DNA of 64,000 nucleotides, from NCBI GenBank assembly GCA_963842085.1, contig CAWJET010000002.1, positions 576,001 through 640,000 on the forward strand, in the 5' to 3' direction. Positions 8,511 to 14,629 of this stretch are shown in pieces. Within the stretch, counting starts at the first letter, position 1. Every line of letters starts with the position of its first letter. The translations under genes and the position numbers were made by a program. The notes under the pieces were generated by a model. That model saw nothing but the letters and a program-made list of their open reading frames with translations, searched no databases and was not told the DNA's origin. The stretch is from an uncultured delta proteobacterium. Its GTDB lineage: Bacteria; Desulfobacterota; Binatia; Binatales; Binataceae.

Positions 8511-8682
8511 GCATTCTCCGGTCGGAGGACGAAAAATCTTGCGCGATGATGCCTGTTTTTGTCCGGAGGGGGCAATATGAGCGCTGCAGCCGGTCGATTG
8601 CATGCCGTTTGCGGAGAGCGTTTTCCATCGACTCGTTGCGGGCTATTATATTTACAAGCGGGATGATTGTGCCGAGGGCGGC

Positions 8683-10014
8683 GTGAATTCACCTCTGACT
8701 CTACTGAAAAGCGACTCTCTAAACCGGCGCGAACTGACGTTCAAGGCTCTTGCGGGCTTGGTCGGCGGCGCGATCGGATGGCTGCCCGTCGAGCTGGCCT
8801 CGCACAACTCTCATCTCGGCGAAGTGCAGACGACGGGCGCGCTGGTCGCGTATTACATCTCGGCGGCGATGGCTGCGGGCGCGATCGGGGCGTTCATAAC
8901 GGCGGTGGATACATCCGACGTTCGCGTGACGCCGGAGACCAAGCGCCGCTTCATTCGCGGTTTCGTGATCTGCGCGCTGCTCTCGCTGCTCTCCACTTAC
9001 TTCGGAAATTATGTGTTCAACGCGGTTCTCCAGGCCGGCGGAGTCGGCTTCAGTCCAAATGGCGAGCTGGTTTCGGGGTCGATTATAACGCTCGTGATCG
9101 CAAGGCTCCTGGGATGGGCCATCGACGGAGCGCTGGTGGGCGCCGGCGTGGGACTGGCGACGCTGACGATGGAGAACGTGCCCAAGGGAGCGGTGGGCGG
9201 ACTGGTGGGCGGTGCGGTCGGCGGTATCGGCTTCGATTTGATCGGCTGGATCGTCGGCGGCGGCCTGGCGTCGCGGTTCTTCGGCGAAGCCGTCACCGGC
9301 CTTGCGATCGGGTTGTTCATCGGGCTGGTCCAGGAGCTGACCAAGGCCGCGTGGGTCACCGTCGAGCAGGGCCGGCTGCGCGGACGCCAGTACCGGATCG
9401 AAGGCGCGCGCGCAACGATTGGGCGCGCCGAGGAAAATCCGGTCGGCCTGTTCGGCGATCCGCTGGTGCAACAGCGGCACGCGGTGATCGAACGGCGCGG
9501 CGCCGACTACGTGATTAGAAATCTCGCGATCCAGGACGGCACCTTCGTCAACGGCCAGCGAATCGAGAGCGTTGACCTGCACGACGGCGATCGAATCAAC
9601 ATCGGCGGCTACGAAATGATGTTCCACCTGCGCGGGACGTCGGCGCCGGCGCGGCAACAGGCGTCGCTGGCGGCAGATGCGGTGAATCCCGCGCATGTCG
9701 CCACGCGGCTGGCCGGCCCAAAGGCGAAGGTCGACGGCCCGAGCCTGGTCGATGTGTCGGGGCAGCCCTACCCGGTCGTGGCCGGCGCGGTTACTCGCGT
9801 CGGGCGCGCCCTCGACAATGAAATCGTGGTCAGCCATTCCTCGGTCTCGCGCCATCACGCGAGCATCGAAAATTCCAACGGCGCCTTCGTGGTGCGCGAC
9901 CTCAACAGCCAGAACGGAACGTTCGTCGGCAACCGGCGCGTGACCGAGCCAACGCGCGTGAGCGACGGCGACAGCGTAAGGTTCGGCGACGCGCAGTTTA
10001 CCTTCCGTGGCTGA
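8683..10014 (+). CDS. Multi-pass membrane protein with two C-terminal FHA domains
   Basis: Gly-rich TM region followed by IGRAEEN..RHA..GTFVNG and VGRALDN..VSRHHA..SQNGTFV; GTG 8683 after GAGG. Confidence 0.88.
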   Translation: MNSPLTLLKSDSLNRRELTFKALAGLVGGAIGWLPVELASHNSHLGEVQTTGALVAYYISAAMAAGAIGAFITAVDTSDVRVTPETKRRFIRGFVICALLSLLSTYFGNYVFNAVLQAGGVGFSPNGELVSGSIITLVIARLLGWAIDGALVGAGVGLATLTMENVPKGAVGGLVGGAVGGIGFDLIGWIVGGGLASRFFGEAVTGLAIGLFIGLVQELTKAAWVTVEQGRLRGRQYRIEGARATIGRAEENPVGLFGDPLVQQRHAVIERRGADYVIRNLAIQDGTFVNGQRIESVDLHDGDRINIGGYEMMFHLRGTSAPARQQASLAADAVNPAHVATRLAGPKAKVDGPSLVDVSGQPYPVVAGAVTRVGRALDNEIVVSHSSVSRHHASIENSNGAFVVRDLNSQNGTFVGNRRVTEPTRVSDGDSVRFGDAQFTFRG

Positions 10015-10348
10015 CGCGGAGTTCGAGAAGCCGAGGTTCTGCTCGCGATGCGGGCAGCCGATCATCGTCGCCGAGGCAAGCTTCTGCAAATCGTGCGGCG
10101 CGCCGGTGACTCGTTTCCCGCTGCTGCGTCAAAATCCGGGGTTCAGCCCGGTGCTCGCGCTCGTGTTGAGCATCGTTCCCGGCGTCGGCCACATTTACCG
10201 GGGCAAACCCTTCAAGGGAATTATGTGGTTTTTTTTCGTATCGATAGCGTACGGCATGGGGCCGCCGCTCGGCGTCCTCATTCACATCATATGCGCGGCC
10301 AATGCGGCCTTCTCGGGCGCGCTACGCGAGGACATGCTGGCGAGATAA
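10007..10348 (+). CDS. Zinc-ribbon plus membrane (TM2-like) protein
   Basis: FCSRCG..FCKSCG ribbon, then ALVLSIVPGVGHIY and further TM helices. Confidence 0.8.
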   Translation: MADAEFEKPRFCSRCGQPIIVAEASFCKSCGAPVTRFPLLRQNPGFSPVLALVLSIVPGVGHIYRGKPFKGIMWFFFVSIAYGMGPPLGVLIHIICAANAAFSGALREDMLAR

Positions 10349-10408: not shown

Positions 10409-11920
10409 ATGATTGCGGCCAACACCATCGTTGGCGGCCGTTACCGGGTGACGAAGCCGCTGGGCGGGGGCGGGATGAAACTCGTCTACCTGGCCGAAGA
10501 TCTGCGGCTTGCGGCGCGGCCGTGTGCGCTGGCCGAGATGGTCGACAGTTTCACCAGCCCGGATACACAGAGGCAGGCGGTCGCTGCGTTTCAGCGTGAG
10601 GCCGACATGCTCGCGCAACTCAGCAACGAGCATATTCCGCGCGTATTCGATCGCTTCAGCGACCAAAACCGTCACTACCTGGTGATGGAGTTCATCGACG
10701 GGATCACGCTTGAGCAGAAACTCAAAGACAGCGGCGGCAAGCTTGCTGAAGGCGAAGTGATCGAGGTGGCGCTGCAAGTGCTCGACACGCTCGAGTACCT
10801 GCATAACCTGGAACCGCCGGTGATCTATCGCGACCTGAAGCCGTCGAACGTAATGCTGACGCCGTCGGGGCAAGTCAAGCTGATCGATTTCGGAATCGCG
10901 CGCCTGTTCCAGCCGCTCAGCAACGCGACGATGATCGGCACGCAGGGCTACGCGCCGCCCGAGCAATATCGCGGCAAGGTCGAGTTCCGCTCGGACCTGT
11001 ACGCGCTGGGCGCCACGATGCATCATGCGCTGTCGGGACGCGACCCGGCGCTCGAGCCGCCCTTCAGCTTTCCGGCGTTGCACTCGCTATGCCCTGACGT
11101 CACCCCCGCCCTCTGCGAGTTGGTCGATCAGGCGCTCAAATACGACGTGGTCCTGCGCATGGCCGATGCCGCGGAATTCAGGCAGCGGCTGATGGCAATC
11201 AAGTCGGGCGCTCCGGTCACGATGCCACAGCGCAATTCGTCAACGGCGGCGGGGGCACGTCCGCAACTAAAGCTGCCGCTCAGCGGCGTCAAGTCCAAAG
11301 AGCAGAATGCGTCGGCGCCGACGATGCTGAGCAGCCAGATCGACTCGGAATGTCCGCGATGCGGCCGCAGCATTCCGATGGACTCGAATTACTGCTCGTT
11401 CTGCGCGGCGGACGTGACCGGGCGATTGTCGGCGCTCGATCGCGGCGCGACGCCCGAGGGGCAACCGATCGTGCTCGACGACGTTGCTCCGCCGGGCGGA
11501 TATCCGGGTCCGATTTTTCATCCCCGCCATCGTAGGCGGCATCGCGCGCGGATGCTGGCGCTGGTGGTCGGCGGATTTTTTCTCATTGGGTACCTTATGT
11601 TCCATTCGTCGCAACCGCAGCCTTCCGACGGCTACCCGGGACCCGACTACGGCGGCGTCCCATCGGTGCCGAATGGCGGCGCGCCCGAGCCGGGGGAACC
11701 GGTGCATACCGATCCGCGGGAGGTCGCGCTGCGCCACGCGCTCGACGCGCAGGGCTACACCTCGGTGCATTTCAAGATGGAGGGCGACACGATCATTTTG
11801 TGGGGCACGGTGCCGACCGAGGCCGATCGTCTGATGATCCAGACGCAGGTTTTCCTGGTCGCGCGAATTTTCTCGATCGAGGACCATCTCCAGGTGCGCG
11901 ATACGTTCGCCGAGCCATAG
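10409..11920 (+). CDS. Hanks-type Ser/Thr kinase with zinc ribbon, TM helix and BON-like C-terminal domain; atypical catalytic Lys position
   Basis: YRDLKPSN, DFG, GTQGYAPPEQ, SDLYALG; CPRCG..YCSFC; TM; C-terminal IILWGTV..IEDHLQV. Confidence 0.92.
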   Translation: MIAANTIVGGRYRVTKPLGGGGMKLVYLAEDLRLAARPCALAEMVDSFTSPDTQRQAVAAFQREADMLAQLSNEHIPRVFDRFSDQNRHYLVMEFIDGITLEQKLKDSGGKLAEGEVIEVALQVLDTLEYLHNLEPPVIYRDLKPSNVMLTPSGQVKLIDFGIARLFQPLSNATMIGTQGYAPPEQYRGKVEFRSDLYALGATMHHALSGRDPALEPPFSFPALHSLCPDVTPALCELVDQALKYDVVLRMADAAEFRQRLMAIKSGAPVTMPQRNSSTAAGARPQLKLPLSGVKSKEQNASAPTMLSSQIDSECPRCGRSIPMDSNYCSFCAADVTGRLSALDRGATPEGQPIVLDDVAPPGGYPGPIFHPRHRRRHRARMLALVVGGFFLIGYLMFHSSQPQPSDGYPGPDYGGVPSVPNGGAPEPGEPVHTDPREVALRHALDAQGYTSVHFKMEGDTIILWGTVPTEADRLMIQTQVFLVARIFSIEDHLQVRDTFAEP

Positions 11921-11930
11921 CATCCACTTC

Positions 11931-12587
11931 ATGATCGTCGACCTGCACGTCCACACGCGGCTTTCGTCCGACTCCAACGTCGCGCCGGAACAGTATCTCG
12001 AATTCGCGAAAAGCTCGGGCCGCGGACTCGGCGCGATCTGCTTCACCGAGCATCGCCTGTTCCCCGCTGACGCCGAAGTCGACCGGCTCTACGCGGAACT
12101 CGCGGAGCGATTTCAGATTGCGATTTTCAAGGGAATCGAGGCCGACACCGACCTCGGTCACCTGCTGCTTCTCGGCGTCACCAGCGAAGTGACGCGGCGA
12201 TTCGATCTGACGGCGCGGATGCTCAAGAGTGACAGCCTGATCGAGGTGATTCATCATGAAGGCGGCGTCGCGATACCCGCGCATCCGTTTCGCGACTCCG
12301 GCTATGGCTCGCGGCTGGACGCACTGCTCAGCCGTCATGGTGCGGCGATTGGCGCGGTCGAAGTGCTTAACGGCCAGAACTCGAGCGAGGAGAACCGGCG
12401 CGCGGAGGATGCGGCGCTCAAGCTCGGGCTGACGGCGGTCGGCGGCAGCGATGCTCATTTCGCGACTGCGAAATGGTTCATGACGGTCGCGACGGAGTTC
12501 GAACGCGAGGTAAACACGGTCGAGCAGATGTGCGCGGAAATCCGCGCCGGACGCGCGCGTCCCTATGTCTTTACGGGTTCGGACTGA
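11931..12587 (+). CDS. PHP-domain metallophosphoesterase
   Basis: DLHVHT, TEH, GIE, AHP, GGSDAH. Confidence 0.9.
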   Translation: MIVDLHVHTRLSSDSNVAPEQYLEFAKSSGRGLGAICFTEHRLFPADAEVDRLYAELAERFQIAIFKGIEADTDLGHLLLLGVTSEVTRRFDLTARMLKSDSLIEVIHHEGGVAIPAHPFRDSGYGSRLDALLSRHGAAIGAVEVLNGQNSSEENRRAEDAALKLGLTAVGGSDAHFATAKWFMTVATEFEREVNTVEQMCAEIRAGRARPYVFTGSD

Positions 12588-14629
12588 GCTGCGGCGCGCG
12601 CGGCGCCGGCTGGTTCCCCGTTTTCCAGCTCGTGCGCGAATTGCCGGATGTCTTGCGGACGCCCCGCGGTGATCAACTCGTCGCCTTCTTTCAGCGGGCG
12701 ATCGGGCGTCATGGGCGCGAAGCCGCCATCCGGCTTGTTCGCCTCCTGAACGGCAAGCACGGTGACGCTGAATCGCGCGCGCGGATCGAGTTGACGCACC
12801 GTTCTTCCCGCCGCGTTGGCGGGGACGGTCACCCGCGTCACGCGATAACCGGTCGCCCAGTAGATATTCGGATCGCGCGTCGCGAGGGTCGAGAGCGAGA
12901 CCGATACACGGTTCAGCGCTTGCGCAATCTGCCGGCTGGTGACGAGCCCGAGGAACCCTTGCGTGGCGCGGTCGACGACCGGAATCTCGTCGAGGCCGTC
13001 GTGCTCCATCAACTGGCTGGCCTCATCGAGATTCGCATCGAGCGGCACGGTCGGACCATGCGCATTGCAGATGTCGAATGCGTTGACCAGCGGACCGAGT
13101 TCCTGGCCGGCGCTGATTACGGACAACAAATCCCGCACTACGATTGTCCCGGCGAGTTCGCCCTCGCTGCTGACCACCGGCAGGGTGGATTGCTCAGTCT
13201 CGCCCGCGGTGCGCAGCACCTCGGACAGCGAGGTGTTCTCGCTCACCATGGTGACGTTTTTGGTGACCACCGCGCTGACCGGTATGAGCGCGAGCGCCAG
13301 GCGCTCGCGGCCGATTTGCAGCGTCTTGCCCTCGCGCGCCAGGCGGAACTCGTCGATCGATTCGGTTTCGATCGCGCGTGCCACGACCACCGCCGTGATC
13401 GTCGCGATCATCGACGGCAGCGCAATCGTGTCGCTATGCGTCATTTCCCAGAGCAGGAACAACGCGGTCAGCGGTGCGTGCGTGGTGCCGGCCAGAAACG
13501 CACCGAGCCCGATGAGCGCGTACGATCCGCGCGGGCCAGTCAGGTGTGGAATCAGCATCGAGGACACGCGCTGGAACAATCCGCCCGCCATCGTGCCGAT
13601 GAAAAAAGTCGGGCCAAAGGAACCTCCCGGCGCACCGCATCCGAGCGACACGCTGCTGGCGAAAAGCTTCGCGCAGGTCAGCGCCGCCAGCATTCCGATG
13701 CCGAACTCGCCCGCCATCGCGCGGTTGATCACCGGATAGCCGTCGGAGAGATTTTGCGGCAGCCAGATTGCGATCACGCCGACCGCCGCCAATCCCATCC
13801 CGAGCTTGGCCCAAACCGGGAGATTGAGCCGGCGAAACCACACCTCGGTCGCGTTGAAGAACCGGATGTAACCCGCGGCAAGGGCGCCGAGCGCCGCGCC
13901 CATGAGCGCATACGTCGCCATCTCCCAGTAGCTGCGCAGCAGGAATTCAGGCGCGGCGAAGACCACCGCGTTGCCCAGGATCGCGCGCGAGGTAATCACC
14001 GCCGTAAAGGTGGCGATGATCAGCAACGTGAGGTTGGCGATTTCGGTGTGGCCGAGCAGGACGATTTCCTGCGCGAACATCAGACCGCCGATCGGCGCGT
14101 TGAAAGTCGTCGCGATACCCGCGCCCGCTCCTGCTGCGACCAGCACCTTGGCGCGATCGGGCGACAATTTTCTGAGCTGCGCGATAGTCGAGCCGATGGC
14201 GCCTCCAATTTGCGCGATCGGACCTTCGCGGCCGACCGACGCGCCTGCCCCCAGCGAAAGTGCGGCGCCCGCACCCTTGACGAAGATCCAGCGCCGCTTC
14301 ACTCTCGCGGTGCCGAGGTTGACCATCTCCAGAAAATTCGGAAAGCCATACCCGAGCACGTCTCCGGGAAAGATCCGGTCGAGCAGCAGAATCGCGACGC
14401 CGCCGCTCAGCAGGATCACTGGAATGAGGGCGCGATGGAGGCCGCCGAGCTCGATTCGGAGCGCGTTCCATTCGAGCCCGCGAAACAGCCACGAGAAAAA
14501 ATCGATCAGTTGGCGAAAGCCGAGGTTCCCGAGCGCGGCGAGCACGCCCACGGTCACGGCCAGCAGAATCAGCTGTACGTATTCGAACTGGTCAACGCGC
14601 AGCGCAAAAGAAGGTCGTCGCATCAGCAA
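12563..14629 (-). CDS. ClC-family chloride channel/transporter with a CBS pair and a TrkA-C domain
   Basis: GREGP, AAGAGAGIATTFNAPIGG, GGSFGP, HAPLTA; CBS repeats; C-terminal RCK-C. Confidence 0.92.
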   Translation of the reverse strand: MLMRRPSFALRVDQFEYVQLILLAVTVGVLAALGNLGFRQLIDFFSWLFRGLEWNALRIELGGLHRALIPVILLSGGVAILLLDRIFPGDVLGYGFPNFLEMVNLGTARVKRRWIFVKGAGAALSLGAGASVGREGPIAQIGGAIGSTIAQLRKLSPDRAKVLVAAGAGAGIATTFNAPIGGLMFAQEIVLLGHTEIANLTLLIIATFTAVITSRAILGNAVVFAAPEFLLRSYWEMATYALMGAALGALAAGYIRFFNATEVWFRRLNLPVWAKLGMGLAAVGVIAIWLPQNLSDGYPVINRAMAGEFGIGMLAALTCAKLFASSVSLGCGAPGGSFGPTFFIGTMAGGLFQRVSSMLIPHLTGPRGSYALIGLGAFLAGTTHAPLTALFLLWEMTHSDTIALPSMIATITAVVVARAIETESIDEFRLAREGKTLQIGRERLALALIPVSAVVTKNVTMVSENTSLSEVLRTAGETEQSTLPVVSSEGELAGTIVVRDLLSVISAGQELGPLVNAFDICNAHGPTVPLDANLDEASQLMEHDGLDEIPVVDRATQGFLGLVTSRQIAQALNRVSVSLSTLATRDPNIYWATGYRVTRVTVPANAAGRTVRQLDPRARFSVTVLAVQEANKPDGGFAPMTPDRPLKEGDELITAGRPQDIRQFAHELENGEPAGAARAAAQSEPVKT

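Follow-up and report, generated by a model that had tools for sequence, protein, structure and literature searches.

A clade of Binataceae receptor-type kinases with a lysine at the WNK position of the glycine-rich loop and none in beta3

In the WNK kinases, the lysine that canonically stands in strand beta3 is described as replaced by a cysteine, with the lysine having migrated to strand beta2 (PMC12599244), and a 2007 paper, which equates K233 of WNK1 with PKA position 55, a glycine of the GxGxFG loop, names WNK as the only functional family of eukaryotic protein kinases (ePKs) without K72 (PMC1821047). Here we describe a bacterial kinase with this arrangement, encoded at 10409..11920 on the forward strand of a 64,000-nucleotide stretch of DNA (the window) from an uncultured delta proteobacterium of the family Binataceae (GenBank assembly GCA_963842085.1, contig CAWJET010000002.1). 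Like WNK1-4, the Binataceae kinase has no beta3 lysine and carries a lysine at the third-glycine position of the loop, with the alphaC Glu, the catalytic loop and the metal-binding Asp all kept; an initial annotation of this DNA had likened it to WNK on these grounds, and the two papers support the WNK positions that it relied on. Unlike WNK, with which it shares no common descent, it reads Ala in beta3 where WNK reads Cys (PMC12599244), has a DFG motif, and shows the architecture of a bacterial receptor kinase (zinc ribbon, transmembrane helix and BON-like domain) in an FHA operon. From the sequence comparisons below, we consider it fairly probable that this protein is catalytically competent, as a Hanks Ser/Thr kinase of the receptor type, and that its ATP-anchoring lysine has moved from beta3 to K24, the WNK position.

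A relocated lysine is also described for POMK (SGK196, protein O-mannose kinase), where the VAIK lysine is missing and the functional lysine lies in beta2, and mutating this migrated beta2 lysine abolishes activity in both WNK1 and POMK (PMC10211241). The Binataceae kinase is like POMK in where its lysine is found, and by analogy that lysine may play the same role. However, the substrate of POMK is a sugar and its HRD- and DFG-type motifs have been relocated as well, whereas the Binataceae kinase keeps a canonical HRD-type motif and DFG. In CAK-chloro, which belongs to the choline/aminoglycoside-type kinases, a charge shift is read by the authors who described it as parallel to WNK (PMC1821047), but CAK-chloro is a branch of small-molecule kinases with Arg in place of Lys and with Phe in place of the alphaC Glu, which is invariant here (E64). 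On the bacterial side, PknB and PknA of M. tuberculosis and StkP and Stk1 of Firmicutes share with the Binataceae kinase a Met in the glycine-rich loop, a Met gatekeeper, a receptor layout with one transmembrane helix and an association with FHA proteins. They differ from it in having the beta3 Lys, in reading Gly, Ala or Ser at the loop position and in carrying PASTA extracellular domains.

By sequence, a pseudokinase is defined as lacking at least one of the VAIK Lys, the HRD Asp and the DFG Asp, according to a 2025 atlas of bacterial Ser/Thr kinases (bSTKs; bioRxiv 10.1101/2025.01.12.632604). With its VAIK Lys absent, the Binataceae kinase falls under this formal definition, and so does WNK, which is active nonetheless. 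The described bacterial pseudokinase families, namely ActPs1-3, GLW, CP1, DYD and DLHK (bioRxiv 10.1101/2025.01.12.632604; PMC12599244), likewise miss the VAIK lysine. Most of them, however, are described as also losing the HRD Asp, the DFG Asp or both (bioRxiv 10.1101/2025.01.12.632604), while the Binataceae clade keeps the two, and the taxa given for these families are Actinobacteria, Firmicutes and others, not Binataceae. No compensating loop lysine features in the descriptions of the seven families; it is by these descriptions that our clade is set apart, and an overlap with unlabelled entries in the atlas tables is possible. Our literature search returned no bacterial Hanks kinase with a catalytic lysine in the glycine-rich loop (the supplementary tables of the bSTK atlas might list one), and a search on Binatota together with protein kinase found nothing.

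A lysine lost from beta3 and gained in the glycine-rich loop

The gene holds an open reading frame (ORF) of 503 codons, to which orthologues align from residue 1, and the predicted topology is a cytoplasmic kinase domain followed by a zinc ribbon, one transmembrane helix and a small C-terminal BON-like domain. Pfam Pkinase, an AlphaFold2 (AF2) model and Foldseek define the kinase domain as residues 1-270 (10409..11218; this and all other features of the gene are on the + strand), and the match to Pkinase (PF00069; 119.3 bits against a cut-off of 31.7, E = 2.5e-34) identifies a Hanks-type Ser/Thr kinase. Residues 18-28 read LGGGGMKLVYL, i.e., G19-x-G21-x-x-K24, so that the glycine-rich loop G19-G-G21-G-M-K24-L-V-Y27 (10463..10489) has its third Gly of GxGxxG replaced by Lys24 (codon AAA, 10478..10480), the proposed ATP-anchoring lysine. 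Residues 37-45 read RPCALAEMV, and the counterpart of VAIK within them, C39-A-L-A42-E43 (10523..10537), has Ala42 (codon GCC, 10532..10534) at the canonical position of the beta3 lysine. When aligned with HMMER to the solved kinase StkP, K24 pairs with the Ala of GRGGMADVY, at the third-Gly position, and A42 pairs with the VAVK Lys. The translation and this alignment bear out the initial annotation, which had reported a kinase with Lys24 at the third Gly and Ala42 in beta3. The beta3 (VAIK) Lys-alphaC Glu pair of Hanks kinases is therefore incomplete, E64 being present and its beta3 partner being Ala42, and what is found instead is the WNK-type combination of a beta3 strand without lysine and a lysine at the third-Gly position.

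We searched 1.84 billion cluster representatives with HMMER, and the best 150 matches fall into two groups in BLASTP alignments to the query, one reading GGGGMKxVYL...CALAEM and the other GxGGM(G/A/S)xVY...CA(V/I/L)KEM. The pairing of the two sites was counted over 289 BLASTP segments, from 269 proteins, that span residues 19-171. K24 occurs in 171 of the 289 segments and is accompanied by A42 in 170 and by S42 in one; K42 occurs in 92, none of which has K24 (0/92). Neither K24 nor K42 is found in the remaining 26 segments, most of which come from proteins with several kinase domains and represent additional or locally misaligned domains. As judged from these alignments, the pairing of K24 with A42 is far beyond chance. 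A few rare variants were also seen within the clade: P0127 reads CVLAKMV, with a Lys at 43 beside A42, and has HRD; P0166 has Ser42; and P0192 has the loop GEGADK. None of them carries Lys42.

Orthologues were sampled blind to the kinase, in that the upstream FHA gene served as the query against species-representative genomes and the kinase was then read downstream, which gave 80 loci. The kinase is present in 79 of these 80 FHA-anchored loci, the other (L228) ending before it. K24 and A42 were found together in every locus that could be read at both sites (77/77), and two fragmentary kinase genes (L236 and L267) each show the expected residue at their sole readable site. Both residues are kept while their codons drift: K24 is encoded by AAG in 47 anchored orthologues and by AAA in 31, and A42 by GCC in 65, GCG in 10, GCT in one and GCA in one. 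For 76 ungapped sequences compared over their first 264 codons (2715 pairs with 0.1 < dS < 1.5), the ratio of nonsynonymous to synonymous substitution rates (dN/dS) has a median of 0.14 and a maximum of 0.32, and the kinase is thus under purifying selection.

A single origin inside canonical bacterial kinases

We inferred a maximum-likelihood phylogeny for 98 kinase domains with IQ-TREE (LG+C20+F+G4, quick search), whose rows comprise 54 loop-lysine kinases, 43 canonical kinases and one distant outgroup from the window's own genome, with eukaryotic WNK not among them. Matches below 45% identity were left out, as were 115 of 120 near-identical orthologues and all alignments starting after residue 12 or ending before 250, the last of which include several N-terminally truncated loop-lysine proteins. 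All 54 loop-lysine rows form a single clade with a Shimodaira-Hasegawa-like approximate likelihood ratio (SH-aLRT) support of 99 and one change of state, and rebuilding the tree without columns 24 and 42 returned the same clade with a support of 100. No row has both lysines, and no row of the clade is without the loop lysine. Canonical bacterial kinases, 45-56% identical and reading G/A/S24 and K42, surround the clade on the tree, and two of them are encoded as paralogues by the window's own genome (GMGRVYL...VAVKEM and GMGMVYL...CAIKEM). When 46 loop-lysine sequences were compared with 34 canonical ones over 275 aligned columns, positions 24 and 42 came out as the top discriminators of the clade (1.00 and 0.98), and the next column, at 0.75, lies far from the active site. 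Residue 42 is Ala in 45 and Ser in one of 46 diverse clade members, and K24, whose conservation was checked in these homologues without a beta3 Lys, is invariant in all 46.

Since the loop-lysine clade sits inside canonical bacterial kinases, the lysine swap is, by this tree, a single event that is convergent with WNK and not descended from it. The closest solved structures by sequence are StkP, Stk1, PknB and PknA (E = 1.5e-36 to 1.9e-26), and when the AF2 model was compared with the PDB in Foldseek, PknA, Stk1 and PknB came out on top (TM-score 0.74-0.84) and the top 12 matches were all bacterial kinases. WNK3 is also in the Foldseek list, with 5o23_B at rank 38 (TM-score 0.75, 25% identity) and the chloride-bound 5o21_B at rank 45, the latter an ordinary match of the kinase fold; the WNK3 entries are 25-26% identical. 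A Met in the glycine-rich loop and a Met gatekeeper are given as hallmarks of bacterial kinases in the bSTK atlas (bioRxiv 10.1101/2025.01.12.632604), and both are present here as M23 (GGM) and M93 (LVMEF), aligned to the Met residues of StkP. The proposal of the initial annotation that the likeness to WNK is convergent agrees with these results, in which both the nearest relatives and the nearest solved structures are bacterial kinases of the PknA/PknB/StkP type.

Catalytic machinery and competing readings

Apart from the beta3 lysine, the catalytic motifs are in place. Across the 46 diverse clade members, which reach down to 34% full-length identity, G19, G21, K24, E64, K144, N147, D160, G162 and E185 are invariant, and A42, D142, T174 and T178 are conserved at 90% or more. 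Glu64 of alphaC (FQRE, residues 61-64; codon GAG, 10598..10600), the expected salt-bridge partner of an ATP-anchoring lysine, is invariant also across an 80-sequence alignment. The catalytic loop Y140-R-D142-L-K144-P-S-N147 (10826..10849) is of the HRDxKxxN type and the Asp of DFG (D160-F-G162, 10886..10894) is present, as in Hanks kinases, and the activation segment A173-T174-M-I-G-T178-Q-G-Y-A-P-P-E185 (10925..10963) ends in APPE at residues 182-185; FQRE, YRDLKPSN, DFG and APPE, which had been called intact, are indeed so in the translation. The Pkinase profile is matched by all 46 clade members. In the AF2 model, which was made from 80 sequences and has a mean predicted local distance difference test score (pLDDT) of 93.3 and a predicted TM-score (pTM) of 0.90, K24 is the first residue of strand beta2 (24-31), A42 lies inside beta3 (37-45) and E64 lies in the alphaC helix (51-69), with low confidence in the loop around residues 172-174.

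Because the catalytic residues are conserved and WNK and POMK offer a precedent, we favor an active kinase in which K24 would substitute for the beta3 lysine. K24 would enter the nucleotide pocket, contact the alpha and beta phosphates and pair with Glu64 of alphaC, after which D142, K144 and N147 together with D160 would perform phosphotransfer as in any Hanks kinase. The cytoplasmic kinase domain would be tethered through the zinc ribbon and the one transmembrane helix to a small, outward-facing BON-like domain. The activation loop may autophosphorylate at T174/T178, and the membrane protein whose gene lies two genes upstream could then recognize the resulting phosphothreonines through its two FHA domains.

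On the other hand, the loss of the beta3 Lys may have ended phosphotransfer, leaving a pseudokinase that serves the FHA membrane protein as a scaffold or switch, either ATP-binding or nucleotide-free, and in which K24 is a clade-specific loop residue of structural or inhibitory function. We regard this as rather unlikely, although several points speak for it or otherwise weigh against an active enzyme. A missing VAIK Lys is itself the sequence definition of a pseudokinase (bioRxiv 10.1101/2025.01.12.632604), and the DYD-type bacterial pseudokinases are described as keeping HRD and DFG (PMC12599244), such that the retention of these motifs and of the alphaC Glu does not by itself demonstrate catalysis. 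Purifying selection as strong as that seen here fits a scaffold equally well. The 'RF' arginine of alphaC, which roughly half of bacterial Ser/Thr kinases are described as having (bioRxiv 10.1101/2025.01.12.632604), is missing and reads Ala60 (10586-10588); Ala is found at this site in 72% of the clade versus 15% of its canonical sisters, a change that could be a secondary adaptation to the relocation of the lysine. The operon contains no PP2C phosphatase gene, the genome's two PP2C matches lying elsewhere. In addition, the initial annotation had argued from two compensating changes, and while by the homologue alignment and the tree the two are coupled and mark a single clade, the tree shows the swap as one event (one change), so that the co-variation is not repeated, independent compensation; its weight rests on the lack of intermediates, on long retention and on external precedent. 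Against a pseudokinase, all other catalytic residues, including the alphaC Glu, are kept across a deep radiation, the only two systematic changes in the active site are the loss of Lys at 42 and the gain of Lys at 24, and the activation-loop threonines are conserved. We know of no role for the alphaC Glu beyond pairing with the lysine. Furthermore, position 24 is the exact site at which the functional lysine is placed in WNK and POMK (PMC1821047, PMC10211241).

A more far-reaching reading makes the protein a full analogue of WNK, i.e., a kinase that senses chloride or osmotic stress and is tied to the ClC channel gene about 650 base pairs downstream on the opposite strand, and we hold this to be very unlikely. 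No more plausible is the mechanism that would go with it, in which ATP binding would respond to an anion or to crowding or osmotic conditions owing to the lysine's place in the glycine-rich loop, and the three-gene module formed by the FHA, zinc-ribbon and kinase genes would report to, or act with, the ClC protein. The WNK-type arrangement of the active-site lysine is in its favor, as is the gene itself (12563-14629, - strand; Pfam Voltage_CLC, E = 2.4e-79), which encodes a ClC-type chloride channel or antiporter that also has TrkA_C and two CBS domains, adjoins the operon in 59 of the 79 kinase-holding anchored loci (short flanks) and persists next to orthologues whose full-length identity is as low as 50-55%. 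The whole neighborhood is syntenic, however: a CoA-transferase gene, unrelated to the operon, is equally frequent on the other flank (59/80), and the hydrolase and aminotransferase genes beyond the ClC gene are also kept. The ClC gene runs convergent to the operon, is in some loci set apart by inserts or absent altogether (L094, L095, L114 and L139), and does not exceed the unrelated gene of the opposite flank in conservation; we therefore draw no functional link from it and rejected its linkage as functional evidence. Chloride binds in the active site of WNKs, where it inhibits autophosphorylation, and this binding involves a DLG motif, whereas the kinase motif here is DFG, and the sequence bears no mark of an anion site; nothing supports chloride or osmotic sensing by the Binataceae kinase. 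True membership of the WNK family, acquired by horizontal transfer from a eukaryote, is extremely improbable. It would account for the shared lysine arrangement, to which only the WNK3 structures among the Foldseek matches can be added, but the best structural and sequence matches, the canonical relatives around the clade, two of them in the same genome, and the two Met hallmarks are all bacterial. WNKs carry accessory regions beyond the kinase domain, and Pfam at E <= 0.01 found no WNK accessory domains here, returning only kinase-type and zinc-ribbon families along with a weak BON match. WNK descent is thus excluded for practical purposes. The same is true of an artefact of sequencing or assembly, or of a recent inactivating mutation limited to one genome, to which we give the least credence of all: the identical residue pair recurs in the 77 independently assembled orthologues, which were sampled independently of the kinase and vary in synonymous codons, and K24/A42 is also found in 54 clusters at 50% identity, in line with the initial annotation, which had dismissed a sequencing error.

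If the kinase is indeed active with K24 as its ATP-anchoring lysine, this bacterial clade would represent another independent origin of a migrated lysine, at the very same residue position, beside WNK and POMK. Its canonical paralogues in the same genomes (G24/K42, 50-55% identical) would then form a natural matched pair in which to ask whether the relocation is neutral rewiring, alters nucleotide affinity or brings a new regulatory input. It would also mean that motif-based calls of pseudokinases in bacterial genomes can mislabel likely active enzymes. Were the analogy to WNK to extend to function, evolution would have arrived more than once at the WNK-type active site as a means of sensing ions or osmotic conditions. 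In practical terms the kinase is of moderate interest, its hosts being uncultured soil bacteria.

Operon, domain partners and distribution

The kinase gene lies in a recurrent gene order, with the CoA-transferase gene (-) on one side, the FHA-membrane, zinc-ribbon/TM2, kinase and PHP genes (all +) in the middle and the ClC, hydrolase and aminotransferase genes (all -) on the other. The FHA gene (8602..10014, +; Pfam FHA, E = 3.3e-37, in two stretches) encodes a polytopic membrane protein with hydrophobic windows in its N-terminal half and two C-terminal FHA domains, which are readers of phosphothreonine, and it lies upstream of the kinase in 79 of the 80 anchored loci. It overlaps by 8 nucleotides (10007-10014) with a gene for a small zinc-ribbon and TM2/DUF6677 membrane protein (10007..10348, +; assigned by Pfam), which is found between the FHA gene and the kinase position in 80/80 loci. 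All three genes occur together in 79/80, which suggests that they form a three-gene membrane phospho-signalling unit. Starting 10 nucleotides past the kinase stop, a gene for a PHP-family metallohydrolase (11931..12587, +; Pfam PHP and PHP_C) is a more loosely associated fourth member, present in 72 anchored loci and in 70 of the 74 that have room for it. The nearest NCBIfam model to this protein is the CehA/McbA metallohydrolase (E = 5.8e-21, below its cut-off). As a candidate for the cognate protein phosphatase the PHP protein was set aside, since that model and the nucleotide/RNA phosphoesterases that come nearest with it all fall below their cut-offs and lend the idea no support. Elsewhere in the window's own genome (C1:2082598-2088810, outside the window; also in L009-L011 and L014), two canonical paralogue kinases, one of them at C1:2086408-2088810, flank a 687-residue ORF that has an N-terminal zinc ribbon, a degenerate kinase-like region (LNDICPES for the catalytic loop and GLD for DFG) and a PP2C_2 match. 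Judging by these motifs, it looks like a pseudokinase-phosphatase fusion between two active-looking kinases.

Downstream of its kinase domain, the protein carries a Cys4 zinc ribbon (CPRC...CSFC, residues 315-335, 11351..11413; Pfam Zn_Ribbon_1, E = 3e-4), and zinc-ribbon families were found in 14 of the 46 clade members. The single predicted transmembrane helix spans residues 382-398 (11552..11602) and is the top Kyte-Doolittle 19-residue window, at 1.94. Because the C-terminal domain (residues ~444-497, 11738..11899) matches Pfam BON only weakly (E = 0.094, 13.5 bits against a cut-off of 27), we label it BON-like; BON is found at E <= 0.001 in 2/46 clade members and in the precomputed annotation of the orthologue P0116. 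Other loop-lysine kinase domains are fused to FGE-sulfatase (3/46), TPR/Sel1 (4/46), PDZ (2/46) or BON (2/46) domains, as in P0126, P0130, P0181 and P0167. These predicted fusions suggest that the loop-lysine module has been reused with varied sensor or partner domains, as would be expected of a working catalytic module.

Among the best 80 genome loci for the family, seven have K24/A42, all of them from Binataceae or from metagenome-assembled genomes (MAGs) labelled only as 'delta proteobacterium' or 'Proteobacteria', and the 73 others, from Chloroflexota, Acidobacteriota and further groups, are canonical. A DNA pattern requiring the K24/A42 arrangement had at least 118 matching stretches, and the 80 matches listed are named Binataceae, Binatus or Binatia or come from MAGs labelled no further than proteobacterial, except for one labelled 'Acidiferrales'. 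When genomes were sampled by GTDB, the pattern was present in 5 of 401 genomes of the phylum, all from the window's own family (4/4 plus the window's genome). Within the 41 genomes of the class, the loop-lysine kinase was found only in these five family members, each of which also has two canonical paralogues, and two genomes from another family had a canonical relative only. Binataceae is thus the family of the loop-lysine kinase in every genome that could be placed. A genome scan seeded with five basal clade members found nothing closer than 47-48% identity, and among its 80 loci K24/A42 occurred in only three, all of them Binataceae loci of the window's type. The divergent loop-lysine paralogues, i.e., those fused to FGE-sulfatase, TPR/Sel1, PDZ or BON domains, are metagenome sequences, and the one of their 20 clusters that carries an organism name (P0144) is from Candidatus Binatus sp.

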